Assembly: GCA_008080745.1 (NCBI GenBank)
Contig: SHMX01000014.1
Location: forward strand, 1 to 14,597
Length of the DNA: 14,597 nucleotides
Direction: 5' to 3'
Source of the DNA: Candidatus Thorarchaeota archaeon
GTDB taxonomy: Archaea; Asgardarchaeota; Thorarchaeia; Thorarchaeales; Thorarchaeaceae
The notes under the pieces were generated by a model, which ran no database searches, had not been told where the DNA came from, and saw nothing but the letters and a program-made list of their open reading frames with translations. A program made the translations under genes and the position numbers. Every line of letters starts with the position of its first letter. Positions within the stretch are counted from its first letter, which is position 1. Below, piece after piece: positions 1,057 through 14,597 of the stretch.

Positions 1057-3399
1057 TCACCGCGAGCTGATCACCATCAGGTAGTGGGCGACGGTCTGTC
1101 CCGCGTCCATCAGGAGCTCGGGATCGAGGTGCTCGATGGTGTCGCCGGTGGTGCCGGAGAGATCGTCCCCGGGGCGGTAGATGGCCAACCCGGAGTAGGC
1201 CTCATCGCCCCGCCCCCAACCGGTGTTGAAGGCGAACTCCCAGCCGGGCAACGGCTCGGCATCGACGCGGAAGCGGCGGGCGCTCTGGTCGAAGGCGCGG
1301 GCCAGGCCAGCGCCCTCCTCGTGCCGGTAGAGGGCCTCCTCGCCGGCCGCCAGACCCACCAGGTCGACCTCGGTCCACGTATCCTCGATCCGCTCGATCA
1401 CCGGCGGGTGATTGACCAGGTAGCGGCCCCCGTCGACGTCGAGGGCGGCGAAGACCACCGTGCGCCCCGGCACGAAGCCGATCTCCTTCCACAGCCGGGC
1501 CACCTCCATCATCACCGCCACGCCGCTGGCGTTCTCGTCGGCGCCGGGGAAGATGGCGCCATCGTGGGGCATGGGCCCCCAGTAGGGTGCGGTGACCAGG
1601 ATCCGGTCGCCCTCGGTGGTCTGGTCGGCGCCGGGGATGTAGCCGACGACGTTGACCGCATCGACCTCCTCGTACTGAAGTCCGGCCTCGACGCTGACCG
1701 TGACCCCCGTGTCGATCCGCATCTCCTCCCCCGTCTCCAGGTCGGCCATCAGCTCATCCAGATCGAGCCCCACGGCAGAGAGAAGCTGCCGGGCAGCCGT
1801 CTCGCCGATGAGCAGATCGGGCCGGCTACGCATATTGCTGTCGGGATCGAACGAGAGACCGCCAAAGGGACCCATCCAGATGGGGGCGACATCGGCGCGC
1901 CAGAGTTCATCATCGGGCACCATGATCAACAGGACCGCGTTGTCGGCGCCGGCGTAATGGCGAACGTAGCCGCTGTCCTCCGGGCGGAGGGCGAGCACGA
2001 CCTTTTCCACCGGCCGTTCGCGATCCAGATTCCCCATGATGACCAGTTCCTCCTGCCGCGCATCCGTCCCCTGGAAATACCCCTGAGGGGAGAAGGAGAT
2101 CCCCTCGCCGAGTTGGAGCTGAGTCCCATCGTCATTGAGCACCGCGACGGCGGGTTCTCTGACGACCTGCCCCCGGACGCCGGTGTAGGCCTGGTAGTAG
2201 TTACCCCACGTCATCTCCGTCAGATCCGCCTGCTCGAACTGGGTGGCGATGTAGGCCGCAGCGGCGTGGCCACCGCCGGGGCCGGAAGGGCGACCTGCGA
2301 GCTCCGGGCGACTGAGATAGGCGACATCGTCCCAGGCCCGTTGGAGGTTGAAGTCCTGCGCCATCTTGGCATACTGGGACTCGATGCTGCTGCTGGCCAG
2401 CAGAGCCTGGGCGCCCCAAAGAACGAGGCCGATGACGATGAAGAACCGGAGCACGGACCAGCCGCTGGGGTGGAAACGCCCCTTTTCGATGAAGCGCTGC
2501 AGACCGTAACCGAAGAGGTTGAAGCCCAGAATGGCGACGAAGAAAGAGATCGCCGGGGCCAATGGAAGCCAGGGCATGGAGCGGAAGTAGGGCCAGGAGG
2601 TGCCGAGCATGGCGCCCCAGTCGGGCACCTCGAAGAAATGGACCACGTGCCCCATATCGACGGCGTCGTCGACGTAGATCCCACCGCCGCCGATGAAGAT
2701 GTGGACGAAGCCCAGCTCGCCCAGGATCAGAAGCACCCCGCCCATCTCCAGGGCCGCCAGCGCGAGGAGGGTAGCCAGCAGATTGGGGAGGACGTGTCGG
2801 CTGAGGATCTGGGGCGAGCTGAGGCCAATGGCACGAGAGGAGAGGACGAAGAGGCGATCGCGCAGGGTGAGGACGTTGCTACGCACGATCTGAGCCACCT
2901 CGCCCCACCCAACGAAGGAGAGGGCTATGATGAAGGCGATCTGCCCTCGCCGGATGCCGACGGCGAAGACGAGGAGGATGGCCAAGATCAGGGCCGGAAT
3001 GGCGGCCAGGAACTCGGTGACGGTGGTGACGGTGCGGTCGAAGAGAGAATGAGGCCACCAGCCGGCGAAAGTCCCCAGGATCAGACCCAGCAGAAGCCGG
3101 ATGGTCATGGCGACGAAAGCGATAATCAGGGTCTGGCGGGCGCCGTAGAGAAGCATCGAGAGCATATCGCGGCCCTGGTCGTCGGTGCCGAGCGGATACT
3201 CCTGGGAGGGAGGAAAGGGCGCACGCTGGAGTTCGCCGTCGATGGTCTGGATCCGATCCCGCCGAAACGGGTTATGTGGCGCCACCTCGGGTCCGATGAC
3301 GGCGAGGAGGACGAAGCACGCCACCAGCACGGTGCCGAAGATGAAGGATCGGTCCCGCACGGCGCGAGTCAGGCGTTGCCAGAGGGTCTGGGGTTTCAT
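1057..3399 (-). CDS. OppC/DppC-type peptide ABC transporter permease fused to a degenerate M28 peptidase-like extracellular domain (780 aa)
   Basis: N-terminal part: PLGTDDQGRDMLS.LLYGAR.TL, AIPALILAI, RAIG....I..RHVLPN and PDWGAML (OppC family), about 7 hydrophobic helices. C-terminal part: DVAYLS.PELAGR.SG, NVVGYIPG and GADENASGVAVMMEVAR (M28 family). GAGGAG Shine-Dalgarno 5 nt before the ATG. Confidence 0.85.
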   Translation of the reverse strand: MKPQTLWQRLTRAVRDRSFIFGTVLVACFVLLAVIGPEVAPHNPFRRDRIQTIDGELQRAPFPPSQEYPLGTDDQGRDMLSMLLYGARQTLIIAFVAMTIRLLLGLILGTFAGWWPHSLFDRTVTTVTEFLAAIPALILAILLVFAVGIRRGQIAFIIALSFVGWGEVAQIVRSNVLTLRDRLFVLSSRAIGLSSPQILSRHVLPNLLATLLALAALEMGGVLLILGELGFVHIFIGGGGIYVDDAVDMGHVVHFFEVPDWGAMLGTSWPYFRSMPWLPLAPAISFFVAILGFNLFGYGLQRFIEKGRFHPSGWSVLRFFIVIGLVLWGAQALLASSSIESQYAKMAQDFNLQRAWDDVAYLSRPELAGRPSGPGGGHAAAAYIATQFEQADLTEMTWGNYYQAYTGVRGQVVREPAVAVLNDDGTQLQLGEGISFSPQGYFQGTDARQEELVIMGNLDRERPVEKVVLALRPEDSGYVRHYAGADNAVLLIMVPDDELWRADVAPIWMGPFGGLSFDPDSNMRSRPDLLIGETAARQLLSAVGLDLDELMADLETGEEMRIDTGVTVSVEAGLQYEEVDAVNVVGYIPGADQTTEGDRILVTAPYWGPMPHDGAIFPGADENASGVAVMMEVARLWKEIGFVPGRTVVFAALDVDGGRYLVNHPPVIERIEDTWTEVDLVGLAAGEEALYRHEEGAGLARAFDQSARRFRVDAEPLPGWEFAFNTGWGRGDEAYSGLAIYRPGDDLSGTTGDTIEHLDPELLMDAGQTVAHYLMVISSR

Positions 3400-5351: not shown

Positions 5352-6847
5352 CAGGAGCATAGGTTTAAAAACTGACAAAGTGCGGTATCCTGTAAGCAAG
5401 AGTGAAAGGATATCGCAACGATGGGAAACCCCAAGAAGAGCTGGTTCATCTTTCTAACAAACCGAGACGCAGTCATTGCCGCACTGAAACGCGGTGAATG
5501 CGATGGGATCCTGCCCGCAGCACGAGGATTCCTGGACGGATTCGCCGAATTTTGTCTGGAAGCGGGTGTGCTGGAGTGTTTCGAGGCCTTTCCCGATCCG
5601 AGAGCGCGGCGGAGCATCCCGATCTTCTTCTTCTGCAACACGTTGGTCTACCGGCCGTTGTTCCACCTGAAACGGCTGGCGCCGATTGCAGACGTGCTGT
5701 TCCGGTCGCCCTACATTCTTCGACAACTGGGATTCAATGGGCGACAGATTGAAGAAGGATTCTACCAAACGCCAGATAGCCAACGTCCATTCACGGCACA
5801 ATCGATTGGAGACTGCTTCGCCAAATCGGAGCCGGAAGACTTTCTGGTAAATCAGATGGACGTGCTGCGCAAGTTGAAGGACTATTGCCCAGGCGAGTTT
5901 CTGTCGGGGATGTGGGTGATGGACAGCGTCACCATCCACGTACCGCGAGGCGCTCATACTCCGGAGCAGGAATTCAAAGTGTGCGTTCTGGGTGTTTGGC
6001 AGGAGAGTACCGTGTGGCCCTTGTTGTGGGCATTTGTGCCCAGCACAGAGCACGAGACCACGGTGGGCCAGAAAGTGTTCGCCGCTGCTGAAGAGGTGTT
6101 GGGAGCCGGTACCATCCGCCATCTGTTGGTGGATCGCGGGTATTTGAACGGTCGCTGGGTAACTGAACTCCATGAACGAGGAACACGGGTGACCATCGGC
6201 GTGCGGAAAGATATGCTGATTATGGAAGAGCTGATGAACTGGGGGCTCTCGCCCAATGCCGAGTGGGATCCTGTAGACCCGCCGGAGATCCACCAAGATC
6301 CTAAGCCCCAGCGCGAGATCTTGGCCATCTCTCATCTGGAAGGGGAATGGTCCACGTGCGACGCTCCCTTGTCCGGTTGTCTCATTCGAGACACCTATCC
6401 GGGAGAAGTGAAGTACCAAGGTCTGGTCACCACGGCGCACGATATATCGGCCTGTGAGATCTTGGATGATAATGGCTGCCGATGGACACTCGAGGAAGTC
6501 TATATGACCCTGACCCGCTACTGGGAGCTTGATGACCTGCCTCCCTGTCGTCCGGGGATTGCCTACGCGATGGTTCATTTTGCTTTGCTTGCCTTTACTC
6601 TGCTCGGCTTCTATCAGCAAGAAACGGATATCGCCTCCGATACCAAGACCTGGAATGCTGGTCCGCCACCGATTCCTCTTCCCGAAAGCGAACTGGCGGT
6701 CTATGCTGGCCCCTATTTCGCACTTCTGCAGCCCAGCGAACTGGTCGAGATTGTCCTTGCCAATATCGACGCCTGGCAGGCTAACCGCAAGCAACTCATC
6801 CTTGCGCTCCGCATGTGCGAGGGCAATACCTAAAACCTATGCTCCTG
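5352..6847 (+). mobile_element. Insertion sequence of the IS4 superfamily (DDE_Tnp_1 type), 1,496 bp
   Basis: Perfect 15-bp terminal inverted repeats, CAGGAGCATAGGTTT (5352..5366) and AAACCTATGCTCCTG (6833..6847), enclose a single transposase ORF. The element is visibly less GC-rich than its flanks. No clear target-site duplication. Confidence 0.9.
5421..6833 (+). CDS. DDE transposase (IS4 superfamily), 470 aa
   Basis: Candidate catalytic triad D168 (VMDS), D238 (VDRGY) and E358 (RWTLEE). AAAGGA Shine-Dalgarno. The stop codon overlaps the right TIR. Confidence 0.9.
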   Translation: MGNPKKSWFIFLTNRDAVIAALKRGECDGILPAARGFLDGFAEFCLEAGVLECFEAFPDPRARRSIPIFFFCNTLVYRPLFHLKRLAPIADVLFRSPYILRQLGFNGRQIEEGFYQTPDSQRPFTAQSIGDCFAKSEPEDFLVNQMDVLRKLKDYCPGEFLSGMWVMDSVTIHVPRGAHTPEQEFKVCVLGVWQESTVWPLLWAFVPSTEHETTVGQKVFAAAEEVLGAGTIRHLLVDRGYLNGRWVTELHERGTRVTIGVRKDMLIMEELMNWGLSPNAEWDPVDPPEIHQDPKPQREILAISHLEGEWSTCDAPLSGCLIRDTYPGEVKYQGLVTTAHDISACEILDDNGCRWTLEEVYMTLTRYWELDDLPPCRPGIAYAMVHFALLAFTLLGFYQQETDIASDTKTWNAGPPPIPLPESELAVYAGPYFALLQPSELVEIVLANIDAWQANRKQLILALRMCEGNT

Positions 6848-10496: not shown

Positions 10497-11642
10497 CTAG
10501 TGTTTGCGCTCCGTCACCGACCTACGGAGGGTCGGGACGTAGTTCACGCCCAGGCTGAAGAAGAGGATGCCGAAGGAAAAGGCGGCAATGACGATGGCGA
10601 ACTCCATCCAGTGGGGGACATAGGTGGCGCCGGCCGGCGCCTGCAGCGCGAACCAGGCGATCGAGGACCGGTTGAGCGCCAGTCCGATCAGCGTGTAGAT
10701 GGCGCCGAACAGCAAGCAGGTCTTGCTCCTCCTGATGCGCGTGCCGAAGATGACCAGCGGCATAATAATGCCGAGGACCATCTCTGCCACCCAGATCACG
10801 CTCAACCAGCCGCTGCTGAAGGCCAGCCCCAGCTCTCCCGCGACCACCAGATCACCGACCTTTAGCACGAGATAGATGGCCTGGACGACGGCCACGATGG
10901 TGGCCAGACGAGTGAGAAGCTGCATAGGCGCGGGCTTTCCCATGGCCCGCCAGGTGACCAGACCCAGCAGGATGGCTACCGTTAGCCCGCTGAACACAGC
11001 GGACGTGAAGAAGAGGATGGGCAAGATCGGGGTCCACCAGAGGGGGTGAAGCTTATGAGCGAGTACCAGAAAGAGCGCGCCCAGCGAGCCCTGGTGGACG
11101 CAGGAGAGCAGGATGCCGAGGCCGGCGATCAGCGGGATCCCCCGGTTGATCAGCCGAATCGGCCACCAATCCCGATCGGCGAATACGACACCCACCAGCT
11201 CCAGCACCAACACGCCGAAGTAGATGGCGACGGAGATGCTGACCTCGAACATGAAGGAGTGGAGGTTCCAGCGCCACGGCATCAGCACACTGTAGAAGTG
11301 GTCCCAGCGGCCCAGATCCATCAGCAGGACCAGCACCACCAGCAGGTATCCCAGAAAGCCGGCCAGGAGGGCTAGATGAGCCACACCGTGGTATTCCTTG
11401 CGGTTGAAGATGTGCAGCACGGCGGCCAGGGTGAAAGCCCCGGCCGAGAGCGGCACGGTGAAGACGTCGAAGGCGATCCACAACCCCCAGGGATAGCCGC
11501 TGTTCAGGTTCGTGGTTGCACCCAGGCCTGTTGCCAGCCGGATGACGCCCACGATCAGCCCAAGGACGACCAGGGCCCCCAAGATCCAGTACGCGACGGG
11601 GATACGAGCCCGCTCTCTGATTCTGGCGATGATCGTTGCCAT
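10497..11642 (-). CDS. HybB/NrfD-family integral membrane subunit (quinone-interacting), 381 aa
   Basis: YPWGLWIAFDV, IFNRKEYH, DLGRW, SFMFEV, HQGSLGAL and LHPLW match HybB/HmcC-type NrfD proteins; about 10 hydrophobic helices. The ATG at 11642 has GGAGG 9 nt upstream (alternative start at 11672). Confidence 0.9.
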   Translation of the reverse strand: MATIIARIRERARIPVAYWILGALVVLGLIVGVIRLATGLGATTNLNSGYPWGLWIAFDVFTVPLSAGAFTLAAVLHIFNRKEYHGVAHLALLAGFLGYLLVVLVLLMDLGRWDHFYSVLMPWRWNLHSFMFEVSISVAIYFGVLVLELVGVVFADRDWWPIRLINRGIPLIAGLGILLSCVHQGSLGALFLVLAHKLHPLWWTPILPILFFTSAVFSGLTVAILLGLVTWRAMGKPAPMQLLTRLATIVAVVQAIYLVLKVGDLVVAGELGLAFSSGWLSVIWVAEMVLGIIMPLVIFGTRIRRSKTCLLFGAIYTLIGLALNRSSIAWFALQAPAGATYVPHWMEFAIVIAAFSFGILFFSLGVNYVPTLRRSVTERKH

Positions 11643-11646
11643 AGTC

Positions 11647-12537
11647 CTATGCCTCCCCTCTTCCTTCGACATCCGGTTCGTTCACTTCGTCCCCCATCCG
11701 GCGCTTGCTAGCCCAGTAGATCCCCCCCAGGACGGCGGCCACACCACCCAACATACTCGGCGTGCCGATCATGGCCACCTTGTCGCTGAGCGCCGGTACG
11801 GGTTCGGAACCAAGAACGGGTAGATCGAACTGCTCGCAGCGGACCCCAGAGATGTAGAGCCAAGAGGTGCCTCCGGCCTCCGTCTCGCCATAGATGTGGT
11901 CGACGTACTCACCGGGGTTCTCCTCAATGCGGGAGCGCGCCTCCTCCAGCAGCTCCTGCCGCGGGCCGAATTTGAGCGCGCCCGTCGGGCACGCCTCGGC
12001 GCAGGCCGGCTGAAGCCCCTCCGCCTGCCGGTCAGCGCAGAACGTGCACTTCGCGATCGTCGGTAGGGTCTCGTTCCAGTCGATCTGGGGCACGCTGAAA
12101 GGACAGCTCACCATGCAGTAGCGGCACCCGATGCAGCGTTCGGCATGGTAGATCACCGGCCCCTCTTCGGTCTTCTCCAGCGCCTGCACCGGACAGACTG
12201 AGACACAGGCGGGGTGGAGGCAGTGCATACACTGATACTTGCAGAAGGTCTCAGTGGCGCAGGTCTGATACTTCTTGACCACCGTGAGGTTGTCAGCCGT
12301 CAGTTCAGTGGGAGGTTCAGCACTTGAGGGCAAGCCATTCCACTCCCTGCAGGCTTCCTCACAGGCCAGACATCCGATGCACTTGGTCGCATCGTAGAGC
12401 ATGGCCGCACCATTCTCAGCGTCCACCTCATCCGACGCACAGGCTGGATCCGGTCGAAAAAGAAGCGCTCCTACACTCAAGCCCGCGAGCTTGAGGATCG
12501 TTCTCCGACTCACCAAGTCTTGTTTCTGCCTATTCAC
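11647..12537 (-). CDS. HybA-like Tat-exported 4x[4Fe-4S] electron-transfer subunit with a C-terminal TM helix (296 aa)
   Basis: GTG start at 12537 with an AAGGAG Shine-Dalgarno overlapping the upstream TAA. Twin-arginine motif SRRTILK. Cys motifs CIGCLACEEAC, CMHCLHPACVSVC, CIGCRYCMVSC and CTFC...PACAEAC. YGETEAGGTSWLY; terminal TM helix followed by KRR. Confidence 0.92.
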   Translation of the reverse strand: MNRQKQDLVSRRTILKLAGLSVGALLFRPDPACASDEVDAENGAAMLYDATKCIGCLACEEACREWNGLPSSAEPPTELTADNLTVVKKYQTCATETFCKYQCMHCLHPACVSVCPVQALEKTEEGPVIYHAERCIGCRYCMVSCPFSVPQIDWNETLPTIAKCTFCADRQAEGLQPACAEACPTGALKFGPRQELLEEARSRIEENPGEYVDHIYGETEAGGTSWLYISGVRCEQFDLPVLGSEPVPALSDKVAMIGTPSMLGGVAAVLGGIYWASKRRMGDEVNEPDVEGRGEA

Positions 12538-12553
12538 GATTCCGGTGTCTCCT

Positions 12554-14596
12554 TTACTCCCTGTAGTCCTTCCGGCGGATGATGATCGGTGTGGCGGTGA
12601 CGCCGGCGAGTGCGATTCCGATCCCAAGCACTAGAGGCCAGCCCGGTCCAGCTGGAGGCGGTGCCGCGTCCGCAGCCTGTGGGCAGTCGGGCAAGGCGGG
12701 TATCTCTTCGACGATGACACGGGCGTTGGCCTCCATCTCATCCGGCGCCACGTCGTCAGCGGTCAGGAAGAGGTCCTCATTGCAGTGGCAACATTCACAG
12801 GTCTGGTTCTGCGGCGTCTCCCGCTGGATGTTGTGGGGGGTCGCGTACTTCCAGGTCGGAACGTTGTCGAACTGAGGTATGAGATCGTCGCCGTAGAAGG
12901 CGAAGGTGTCCGGCGCCACCGGGACGTGGCGGACCAGGACGTATTCCCAGGGCCGATCCTCGCTCTGCATCGGATTGCGACCGATCTTGAACAACATCTG
13001 GCTCTCTTCGGTCTGGTAGTAGGACAAGCCCTGATCGTCCAACCCGACGTGGCAGTCATAGCAGTTCTTGTACGGCCCGGAGACGTGGCACACCTGGCAG
13101 GCGACGGTTTCGGCGTGGACCTCGTGCTCGACGATCTCACTCTCCTCTGAGATCACACCCGCGTGACAGTCGAGGCAGCTCACATCCGGCTCGCCGGCGT
13201 AGCGATGAGCCGGCTCGGAGCCATCGCCGTGGTATTCCGTCACATCGTGGCACTGGAAGCAGGACATACCCTCCTCCAGCCAGTGGACGCTGCCCTCGAC
13301 GCCCTCGTTCTTGCCCTGATACTCGTTGGCCACGCGGGCGCCGTGGCAGGCCATGCACGTATCGCGAATCGAAGCGACCGATTTGACACGATGGCCGGCG
13401 ATCAAGCCGCCAAAGGTGAAGCTGGGCCGGCTGATGTGACACTGGCCGCAGGTCGTGTGACAGCTGTCGCAGTGATTTCCGAAGGCTTCCTCCATCACCG
13501 GATCGCTGAAATCTACGCCTCGGGCCGAGAGCACGGTGTAGTAGCCGGTCAGGTTCTGGTGGAGGCTGGTCGATGCGTGCCGGGTAGCGTCGACGTGGCA
13601 GATGCCGCAGACTCGCTCCGACGACTCCAGCGGATCCCGCACCACGCCCTCGTGAGCGGCCTCCATATCATCTTCGTCTCCAACCCCGCCGTGGCACCCG
13701 ATGCAGTTCTGCGTATTGTGGACCGAGAGCAGGAACCCGTCCTCGATGAAGACCTTCTCCCATGCCTCCAACGGAGGCAATTCTCCCCCTCAGCCCTCGC
13801 CGGAGGTCTGCTCCGACACCACCTCCTCTTCTACCGCCAGATCCTCCAGCTGCACCCGATCGGTGTGGCAGTTGATACAGCTGCCGGAACCGTCCAGCAT
13901 CGACGGCATGTCCGCCGCCGGTTCGGGGGTGGATTCTGGGGCCGGCGCCGGTTCCCCACCGGCACCCGCCAACGGGGTCGGGAGCTCGTAGGGACCGCCG
14001 GGCTCGTGGGCCTCGGTGTCGATGGTGTAGTCCCCCGCGTGGGTCTCCGGGTTGAAGCGCTTGGCGTAGACCTCCGGATCCGTCGTCCACGACGACATCC
14101 CGAACAGGAGCGAGACAGCGTCATAGCCCAGCATGTTCAGCGCCGCCGTCGCCTGGCCCGCCGTCTGGCCCGTGTAGCAGACCAGCACCACGTCCCGGTC
14201 CGACGGGATCGCCGCCAGGCTCTCCGCGCTGAACAGCTCCGTCACGCTCACGTTGACCGCGCCGGGAATGTGGCCCGCCGCGTAGTCCTCCGCCGAGCGG
14301 AGGCTGATGATCGTCGGGTCGTTCTCCGGGTCGCCATCGTTCAGGTTCTCGTAGAGATCCGCGGCCTGGATCGTCCGCGGCCCCTCACTGAAGTAAGCCG
14401 CCGCCGCCCCGGCCACATCCGCCGCCAGGGGGCTGGGAACATCGTAGGACCCCTCAAGCTCGTGGGCCTCGGTGTCGATGGTGTAGTCCCCCGCGTGGGT
14501 CTCCGGGTTGAAGCGCTTGGCGTAGACCTCGGGGTCGGTGGTCCACGACGACATCCCGAACAGGAGCGAGACAGCGTCATAGCCCAGCATGTTCAG
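12554..14596 (-). CDS. 5'-partial selenoprotein: tandem rhodanese domains, CxxCH, Sec (TGA 13790-13792), 10 x CxxCH multiheme cytochrome c, C-terminal TM anchor
   Basis: ORFs 13790..14590 and 12554..13780 are in the same frame, separated by TGA plus 3 codons (GGE). A SECIS-like hairpin follows. The rhodanese domain has GHIPGAVN, active-site CYTGQTA (Cys codon 14177-14179) and LLFGMSSW. There are 11 CxxCH motifs in total. The frame is open to the window edge. Confidence 0.88.
13763..13779 (-). promoter_or_regulatory. Bacterial SECIS element
   Basis: The mRNA reads UGA-GGGGGAGAAU-UGCCUCC-GUU-GGAGGCA: a 17-nt stem-loop (7-bp perfect stem) spanning +11..+27 after the UGA, with the apical loop starting G-U at +18. 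Confidence 0.85.
13790..13792 (-). other. In-frame UGA read as selenocysteine (motif SGEG-U-GGE)
   Basis: Coding-like sequence continues in frame on both sides, the context is Gly-rich, and a SECIS-like hairpin lies downstream. Confidence 0.85.
14002..14141. repeat. Intragenic tandem repeat of the rhodanese module, inner copy (period 456 bp = 152 aa)
   Basis: 136/140 identical to 14458..14597; all 4 differences are synonymous. Confidence 0.95.
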
Positions 14597-14597
14597 C
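14458..14597. repeat. Intragenic tandem repeat of the rhodanese module, outer copy (continues beyond the window)
   Basis: Encodes LNMLGYDAVSLLFGMSSWTTDPEVYAKRFNPETHAGDYTIDTEAHE, identical to the inner copy. Confidence 0.95.

Follow-up and report, generated by a model that had tools for sequence, protein, structure and literature searches.

What kind of enzyme is encoded by an operon that joins rhodanese domains, an in-frame UGA codon and a multihaem cytochrome in one gene, and places a quinone module directly behind it? The question is raised by contig SHMX01000014.1, binned as Candidatus Thorarchaeota, whose 14,597 bp are the whole stretch of DNA analysed here (the window). Three co-oriented genes, all on the minus strand, occupy positions 10497 to 14597. 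Gene 1 encodes rhodanese repeats fused to a selenocysteine (Sec)-containing 11-haem cytochrome c, gene 2 a HybA-like iron-sulfur (Fe-S) protein and gene 3 an NrfD-type membrane protein. We propose, from sequence and at a probability of roughly 45%, that the three products form an outward-facing membrane complex that acts as a quinol-fed sulfane-sulfur or polysulfide reductase without molybdenum (Mo).

Probable selenocysteine in gene 1

Gene 1 ends with a TAA stop at 12556-12554. With the TGA at 13792-13790 read through, the window encodes a fragment of 680 residues (P0001) that comprises, in order, the tail of a rhodanese domain, a full rhodanese domain, a Pro/Ala-rich linker, haem 1, the sequence TSGEG-U-GGELPPLEAWEK, ten CXXCH motifs and a hydrophobic helix. 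Its features are as follows.

12554..14597, minus strand: gene 1, (rhodanese)n, Sec, 11-haem cytochrome c and C-terminal membrane anchor (Pfam Rhodanese and Cytochrome_C7)
14422..14597, minus strand: tail of the preceding rhodanese repeat, whose 176 nt recur directly at 13966-14141 with 90% identity and a period of 456 nt
14084..14365, minus strand: the one full rhodanese domain, residues 78-171, with a PF00581 score of 55.5 bits (cut-off 22.2)
12785..13879, minus strand: multihaem region with 11 CXXCH motifs, haem 1 (13879-13865) before the Sec codon and haems 2-11 after it
13790..13792, minus strand: in-frame UGA, U269 of P0001, conserved in 24 loci
13763..13779, minus strand: hairpin UGCCUCC-GUU-GGAGGCA, resembling a selenocysteine insertion sequence and beginning 11 nt 3' of the UGA (from strand folding)
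12578..12634, minus strand: C-terminal hydrophobic anchor helix of gene 1 (hydropathy 2.29; residues 655-673)

Four lines of comparative evidence support the decoding of this UGA, which is very probably read as selenocysteine. First, TGA stands at the same position in 24 independent loci of 43-100% identity, spanning Anaerolineae, Ardenticatenales, Caldilineae and Dehalococcoidia, with the frame and the flanking residues kept across it. A survey of 301 sampled Chloroflexota species genomes recovered the gene in nine, and all 11 matches contained exactly one TGA. The codon is also unchanged in contigs of two other studies, and 15 of the 19 variant sites listed 3' of it in other samples fall on third codon positions. 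Second, the hairpin covaries: when the 24 loci are aligned 97.5% of cells are paired, compared with 40-55% in slid controls, two pairs show compensatory changes, and none of 500 shuffles was as good. Hairpin DNA is invariant among close relatives, synonymous sites included; in a distant clade the third pair changes from C-G to G-C, swapping Pro and Ala in the peptide (LPPLEAW to VAPLEPW), and in two other loci a G-C pair becomes A-U. Third, one relative (L020) has TGC (Cys) at the Sec position, and there the hairpin is absent. Lastly, selA was present in five of five and selB in four of five related genomes tested. The comparative analysis alone is informative, as the folding energy of the UGA region taken as a single sequence is indistinguishable from that of shuffles (z = -0.15); an Rfam scan of the window matched no family, hairpin included.

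The suggestion that gene 1 encodes a selenocytochrome, made in an earlier note from the letters of the window, is thus well supported. That the TGA is a true stop, leaving an exported one-haem rhodanese and a separate decahaem cytochrome, has next to no probability: gene callers do split gene 1 at the UGA across databases and no Rfam model matches, but the open reading frame (ORF) downstream lacks a signal peptide, the TTG called as its start is simply the Leu codon of ELPPLEAW, and all four lines of evidence above speak against termination.

Fusion of tandem rhodaneses to a multihaem cytochrome

The rhodanese domain of gene 1 has its predicted catalytic Cys140 (codon 14179-14177) in a six-residue loop, CYTGQT, that resembles the CYHGNS loop of the rhodanese GlpE, and with its Pfam match it has the characters of a PF00581 sulfurtransferase. 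The loop is kept as CYTGQ[TS] by every rhodanese repeat in the six related loci L005, L006, L012, L019, L010 and L011. Gene 1 has about 1000 homologues, and in loci that retain its 5' end the product starts with a signal peptide of the Sec secretion type, continues with tandem rhodaneses and ends with the Sec-cytochrome, which carries 11 or 13 haems. The number of rhodanese domains in these full-length relatives varies from two (L019) through four (L006 and L012) to six (L005), each with CYTGQ[TS]A. Distant members encode the rhodanese in a gene of its own, which lies directly upstream in L009, L010, L011 and L014 and is adjacent in seven of nine further loci. Since the two parts are fused in one clade and adjacent in others, the comparison provides strong evidence that rhodanese and Sec-cytochrome function together.

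The cytochrome itself was examined in an alignment of 55 sequences. CXXCH motifs 3-11 are invariant and motif 2 is nearly so; motif 1 lies in an N-terminal part that 16 of the 55 rows cover. Outside the motifs there are 11 conserved His residues, for 11 haems, and the Sec is the sole conserved Cys or Sec. This pattern suggests that the haems form a bis-His wire and that the reactive residue is the Sec, which lies directly after haem 1 in a Gly-rich, acidic loop (GEG-U-GG) that is presumably mobile. An AlphaFold2 model of the cytochrome domain, built from the same 55 rows, did not reach the quality needed to locate the Sec among the haems (mean predicted local distance difference test score, pLDDT, 53.7), and a Foldseek search of the PDB with this low-confidence model returned nothing at E <= 0.001. 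Sequence and profile searches of the PDB with the gene 1 protein gave marginal haem-motif matches only, and a protein-atlas search with the ORF after the Sec codon found only generic cytochrome c clusters. The C-terminal anchor helix is shared with L002-L008 and L012.

The 456-nt repeat is the likely cause of the break that ends the window inside gene 1. The long contigs of relatives L002, L003, L004, L017 and L018 likewise end inside rhodanese repeats, and in other runs the repeats show 'goes back 416' joints together with raised depth, their copy number being uncertain. Rhodanese repeats of this kind are a systematic obstacle to short-read assembly.

A HybA/HybB-type quinone module follows gene 1

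Genes 2 and 3 follow gene 1 at close distance, with spacers of 16 and 4 nt.

12538..12553, minus strand: spacer between genes 1 and 2, 16 nt, with the Shine-Dalgarno sequence AAGGAG overlapping the TAA of gene 1
11647..12537, minus strand: gene 2, Tat-exported 4x[4Fe-4S] protein with a C-terminal helix, HybA/HmcB/FdnH-like (PF13247 and NCBIfam)
11643..11646, minus strand: spacer between genes 2 and 3, 4 nt, with GGAGG inside the end of gene 2
10497..11642, minus strand: gene 3, NrfD-family integral membrane subunit, HybB/HmcC-like, with the presumed quinone site (PF03916)

Gene 2 has a GTG start at 12537 and a TAG stop at 11649-11647. Its product carries a twin-arginine signal (SRRTILK) and 16 Cys residues in four cluster motifs, and these Cys residues and the RR motif are invariant among 13 orthologues. 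Among NCBIfam models it scores best with HmcB (266 bits; cut-off 420), HybA (237.6 bits; cut-off 263) and the formate dehydrogenase beta subunit (141 bits), in each case under the equivalog cut-off. Gene 3, with an ATG start at 11642 and its end at 10497, matches the NrfD family (PF03916) at 91.8 bits, has about ten hydrophobic segments and scores 251.9 bits with HybB (cut-off 450) and 202 bits with HmcC (cut-off 550).

Pfam, NCBIfam and the motifs confirm the identities that had been assigned to the three genes from sequence, where only the strand was left unstated, and the two gaps and the Shine-Dalgarno sequence over the gene 1 stop had been described exactly as they are found. It had also been claimed that nothing else follows in the operon. 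This is plausible: a gap of 250 nt separates gene 3 from an unrelated FGase-like gene, and in relatives the genes beyond the third vary between loci; a terminator scan 3' of gene 3 detected none.

Gene neighbourhoods in relatives

All 15 loci of the clade to which the window belongs have a HybA-like Fe-S gene directly behind gene 1. What comes third varies: five loci (the window, L006, L008, L019 and L020) have an NrfD-type gene. In six others (L003, L004, L007, L012, L021 and the P0087 contig) its place is taken by a 218-residue FdnI-like dihaem cytochrome b, which scores 110.7 bits against a cut-off of 115.85. In L005 the contig breaks off within the Fe-S gene, before any third gene. Further afield, L010 and L011 have a cytochrome, a cytochrome b and another cytochrome instead of the Fe-S and NrfD genes, and L014 has an Fe-S gene, an NrfD gene and a small cytochrome gene ahead of the rhodanese and Sec-cytochrome genes. 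The common theme of these loci, as judged from gene content, is a link to the quinone pool and not a fixed gene trio.

Whether a catalytic subunit is encoded upstream can be inspected only in relatives, as the window ends inside gene 1. Gene 1 is the first gene of its operon in L005, L012, L019, L009 and L010, where the genes upstream are divergent or unrelated (a cupin-helix-turn-helix gene, ComEC, an ArsR-type regulator, CcmEF and LysR, respectively). In no relative that holds the 5' end and upstream sequence is a molybdenum-bis(pyranopterin guanine dinucleotide) (Mo-bisPGD) or [NiFe] gene co-transcribed with gene 1. The window contains neither a Mo-bisPGD nor a hydrogenase gene, and none of the related loci examined contains a hydrogenase gene. 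The upstream inspection that the earlier note had called for thus yields no molybdopterin or hydrogenase subunit wherever it can be made.

A molybdenum enzyme does stand next to the operon in two relatives. In L006, 2 kb downstream (L006:8209-13243), there is an operon for a Tat-exported, Sec-containing FdnG formate dehydrogenase (HQARI-U-HSATV), whose Fe-S and NrfD proteins are 49% and 60% identical to those of the window and are their nearest paralogues. A similar Mo-bisPGD, Fe-S and NrfD operon, with an FdhE-like gene beside it, is found at L019:14454-17263. This kinship indicates that the module of genes 2 and 3 descends from quinone-reducing enzymes. A PsrABC-like operon was considered as the neighbour and rejected, given the identity of the L006 enzyme as FdnG and the FdhE-like gene adjoining the L019 operon.

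Two further observations concern genes at the borders of the operon. In L003, an ArsR-type regulator and DsrE, DsrE2, DsrEFH-like and TusA genes, of the kind involved in sulfur trafficking, lie 3' of the operon (L003:3497-7003). A LysR gene adjoins the operon in L020 and in L006, there between it and the formate dehydrogenase operon; both LysR proteins match best the NCBIfam model 'selenium metabolism-associated LysR', at 227 and 245 bits, respectively, under the cut-off of 250.

Variation at the Sec position

A profile search of 1.84 billion representative proteins returned 178 clusters at E <= 1e-30. Among clusters that are not truncated at the Sec position, many have Cys there (GEG-C-GG or S-C-GG; for example P0171, P0153 and P0179). 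Two have a vicinal Cys-Cys pair (E-CC-GG), reminiscent of Cys-Sec in thioredoxin reductase, and a few have Trp, His, Tyr or Pro. The distant members with Cys-Cys, Trp, His, Tyr or Pro are P0169, P0172, P0128, P0132, P0173 and P0111; a Trp codon is one base away from TGA. With Cys in many clusters and Trp, His, Tyr or Pro in few, the redox centre appears to be ancient in the family and lost in some lineages. Full-length rhodanese-cytochrome fusions of the Cys type were found neither in a word-based search nor among the best 150 representative clusters.

Comparison with known systems

The best functional analogue of gene 1, on the features compared here, is MccSep together with ExtH. MccSep (ExtKL, GSU2937-2936) of Geobacter sulfurreducens is a polysulfide reductase with five haems and a Sec; the respiration of elemental sulfur (S0) depends on it, and it also reduces selenite (PMC13510729, 2026). 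ExtH, a rhodanese lipoprotein, is encoded in the same gene cluster (PMC6148476). Both systems have a non-cytoplasmic multihaem cytochrome c, one Sec specified by an in-frame UGA with a hairpin, and a rhodanese partner, and in both cases annotation splits the cytochrome gene into two ORFs. The differences are nevertheless considerable, and gene 1 does not appear to belong to the MccSep family. The MccSep chains (9wt8/9wt9), present in the PDB set that was searched, gave no match to the gene 1 protein or its profile. MccSep has five haems, whereas the gene 1 family has 11-13; its Sec lies in a C-terminal immunoglobulin-like domain (D-G-U-P) rather than after haem 1 (GEG-U-GG); and it has a conserved haem-ligating Cys, where gene 1 has no second conserved Cys. 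MccSep is a soluble tetramer whose electron donor is unidentified, while gene 1 has a membrane anchor and a quinone module in its operon, and tandem rhodaneses are fused to it where MccSep has ExtH encoded in the cluster. Chloroflexota, the phylum of the host here, go unmentioned in the main text of the MccSep survey.

Complexes of a cytochrome, an Fe-S protein and an NrfD protein that contain no molybdenum are represented by Hmc, Nhc and Ohc of Desulfovibrio and by NrfABCD and MccABCD, so that the absence of molybdenum is not new in itself. Like Hmc, Nhc and Ohc, the operon combines a periplasmic multihaem cytochrome with a four-cluster Fe-S protein and an NrfD-family subunit, with no Mo enzyme. 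HmcB and HmcC are among the best NCBIfam models for genes 2 and 3, yet both scores are far under the cut-offs. Compared with Hmc, moreover, the operon has no HmcDEF, and its cytochrome is unrelated and carries Sec and fused rhodaneses. This cytochrome is probably catalytic rather than an acceptor for cytochrome c3.

PsrABC and Sud (Wolinella, Thermus) offer a further parallel, with catalytic, 4x[4Fe-4S] and NrfD-type quinol subunits and a rhodanese-type carrier that supplies polysulfide sulfur to the active site. Here, in contrast to PsrABC and other complex iron-sulfur molybdoenzymes, the Mo-bisPGD subunit is not present and the sulfur carrier is covalently fused, and subunits 2 and 3 resemble HybAB/FdnH and not Psr/Phs/Ttr (the TtrB model gives gene 2 109 bits). 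The closest paralogues of these subunits belong to periplasmic Sec formate dehydrogenases of FdnGHI type and by HybOCAB, and the alternative cytochrome b is likewise FdnI-like; where those complexes have a Mo/W-bisPGD or [NiFe] catalytic protein, the operon has the rhodanese-Sec-cytochrome. Because the nearest paralogues serve a Mo enzyme, it is fair to say that the cytochrome stands where a catalytic alpha subunit would be expected. The earlier proposal that it replaces PsrA can be kept insofar as a molybdenum catalytic subunit has given up its place, but not as to the partners, which are of HybAB/HmcBC/FdnH type and not of PsrBC type.

Proposed mechanism and direction of electron flow

The tight, translationally coupled spacing and the domain content support the reading of the operon as one quinol-fed reductase. 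We infer that the three proteins bind one another, and we postulate the following course. Quinol would be oxidised at the NrfD/HybB-type subunit (gene 3), and the electrons would travel by way of the four [4Fe-4S] clusters in the Tat-exported, HybA-like product of gene 2 into the 11-haem wire of gene 1, which would be held at the membrane by its own C-terminal helix. The N-terminal tandem rhodaneses would take up sulfane sulfur as Cys-persulfides, from polysulfide or S0 and possibly from thiosulfate, and hand it to the single Sec in its flexible Gly-rich loop after haem 1. The Se-S adduct would then be reduced by the haems and the sulfur released as sulfide. The formate dehydrogenase beside the operon in L006 and L019 is a possible electron donor; the DsrE/TusA genes 3' of the operon in L003 and the presence of almost the same DNA in sediment and mat metagenomes also speak for this reading. 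Slightly more tentatively, the operon may encode a self-contained, molybdenum-free quinol:polysulfide oxidoreductase in which fused rhodaneses feed a haem-reduced Sec, a class of sulfur-respiration enzyme without sequence kinship to Psr/Sre, MBS and MccSep that would be convergent with MccSep and widespread in sediment Chloroflexota. In a still bolder variant, the Sec would be an axial ligand of haem 1.

Several findings weigh against the operon being a reductase of this kind. The contig stops within gene 1, at 14597, so that the window has neither the 5' end of the gene nor the region upstream of it. Sec chemistry does not extend to the whole of the wider family, given the few clusters with Trp, His, Tyr or Pro, and no rhodanese was found near gene 1 in L020, L029 and L030. 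Nor is the NrfD subunit conserved across the family: in addition to the six clade loci with cytochrome b, three (L002, L017 and L018) have no membrane subunit beside the Fe-S gene. Of the co-occurrence of the three genes that had been anticipated, the part concerning the Fe-S gene holds throughout the clade, whereas that concerning NrfD does not. The reduction of polysulfide by menaquinol is thermodynamically unfavourable under standard conditions. Finally, the closest characterised relatives of subunits 2 and 3, HybAB, FdnH/FdnI and HmcBC, pass electrons into the quinone pool or the cytoplasm, so that the data fit the reverse direction equally well.

In that reverse direction, sulfide or another form of reduced sulfur would be oxidised at the Sec, the sulfane product passed to the rhodaneses and quinone reduced, making the complex a haem/Sec analogue of sulfide:quinone oxidoreductase with its rhodanese. 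We regard this as unlikely overall, yet as a serious rival, because subunits 2 and 3 have their nearest paralogues in a Sec formate dehydrogenase; HybA/HybB, FdnH/FdnI and HmcB/HmcC are all servants of electron-donating enzymes. The FdnI-type cytochrome b of the six clade loci would suit an energy-conserving redox loop towards quinone, the DsrE/TusA genes downstream in L003 and the ArsR-type regulators beside L003 and L019 would fit as well, and one relative comes from activated sludge. Speaking for reduction are MccSep, the sole characterised Sec multihaem enzyme and a reductase (PMC13510729), the formate dehydrogenase operon that lies alongside as a possible donor in L006 and L019, and the neighbourhoods, in which no gene for further oxidation of sulfane sulfur is conserved.

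An improbable alternative keeps the direction and changes the substrate to selenite or a tellurium oxyanion such as tellurite, which would be respired or detoxified while Sec and rhodanese handle Se(0) or Se-S intermediates. MccSep also reduces selenite (PMC13510729), the ext cluster is needed for selenite and tellurite reduction (PMC5877670), and the LysR proteins of L006 and L020 match best a selenium-associated model. Their scores, however, are under the cut-off, and the L006 gene flanks a Sec formate dehydrogenase too; selenium oxyanions are scarce in sediments relative to sulfur species, and MccSep itself prefers polysulfide.

Comparably improbable is a role of the cytochrome as a quinone-fed extracellular conduit of electrons to minerals or partner cells, with rhodanese and Sec as accessories in redox sensing or repair. 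The 11-13 apparently bis-His haems would suit such a wire, as would the weak similarity of the cytochrome to the DmsE/MtrA-type decahaem wires (TIGR03508, 32 bits) and the linkage of gene 1 to further multihaem cytochromes in L010 and L011, and relatives that have Pro, Trp, His or Tyr in place of the Sec are possibly plain wires. A passive wire would nevertheless explain neither why a costly Sec codon and a selected hairpin are kept over 43-100% identity, nor why a rhodanese is fused or adjacent almost throughout. We therefore favour the quinol-fed sulfane-sulfur reductase over these alternatives.

Origin of the window and other features

The window contig is almost certainly mis-binned in its assembly, given that its GC content is 64.5% and that of the assembly about 41%, with 39-43% in the 14 large contigs. 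Four further small contigs (C15, C17, C18 and C19) have a GC content of 62-65%, and together with the window they look as if they came from a different, Anaerolineae-like organism. A continuation of gene 1 was sought in the remaining contigs of the assembly and none was found. The window's own genome was accordingly rejected as a source of context, on the GC mismatch and the lack of a contig that continues gene 1. The nearest relatives are Anaerolineae metagenome-assembled genomes with about 70% protein identity, and almost the same DNA is found in metagenomes of marine sediment, sediment and microbial mats from several studies; no RNA dataset is among the listed runs with such DNA. The host of the operon is a sediment bacterium of the Anaerolineae, phylum Chloroflexota. 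As the arrangement is found again in many independent metagenomes, its layout is not due to chance.

Two other ORFs of the window are of note. At 5421-6833 (plus strand), a 470-residue ORF lies in a patch of lower GC content (~56%) and has weak matches to IS4/IS701 transposases (E ~1e-5) and none in Pfam; it may be a degenerate insertion element. At 1057-3399 (minus strand), a 780-residue ORF combines the domains of an OppC-type ABC permease and an M28 peptidase, an unusual fusion.

Significance

For the rhodanese-Sec-cytochrome family, our literature searches found no paper joining rhodanese, multihaem cytochrome, selenoprotein and Chloroflexi/Chloroflexota. As far as these searches reach, the selenoprotein family, the tandem-rhodanese fusion and the direct operon link to a quinone module are new. 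All public annotations we encountered split gene 1 at the UGA; because of this, and because contigs tend to break in the rhodanese repeats, the family goes unnoticed when metabolic reconstructions deal with the cycling of sulfur and selenium. In anoxic sediments, Anaerolineae and their Chloroflexota relatives rank with the most abundant bacteria, yet their respiration is poorly known. If our reading is correct, they would possess a complete three-gene route from the quinone pool to sulfur that is built on selenium and haem instead of molybdenum. It would also address two questions of the MccSep study, which partner supplies the electrons and whether a sulfur-transfer protein is involved, both of which would here be fixed by the fusion and the operon structure.

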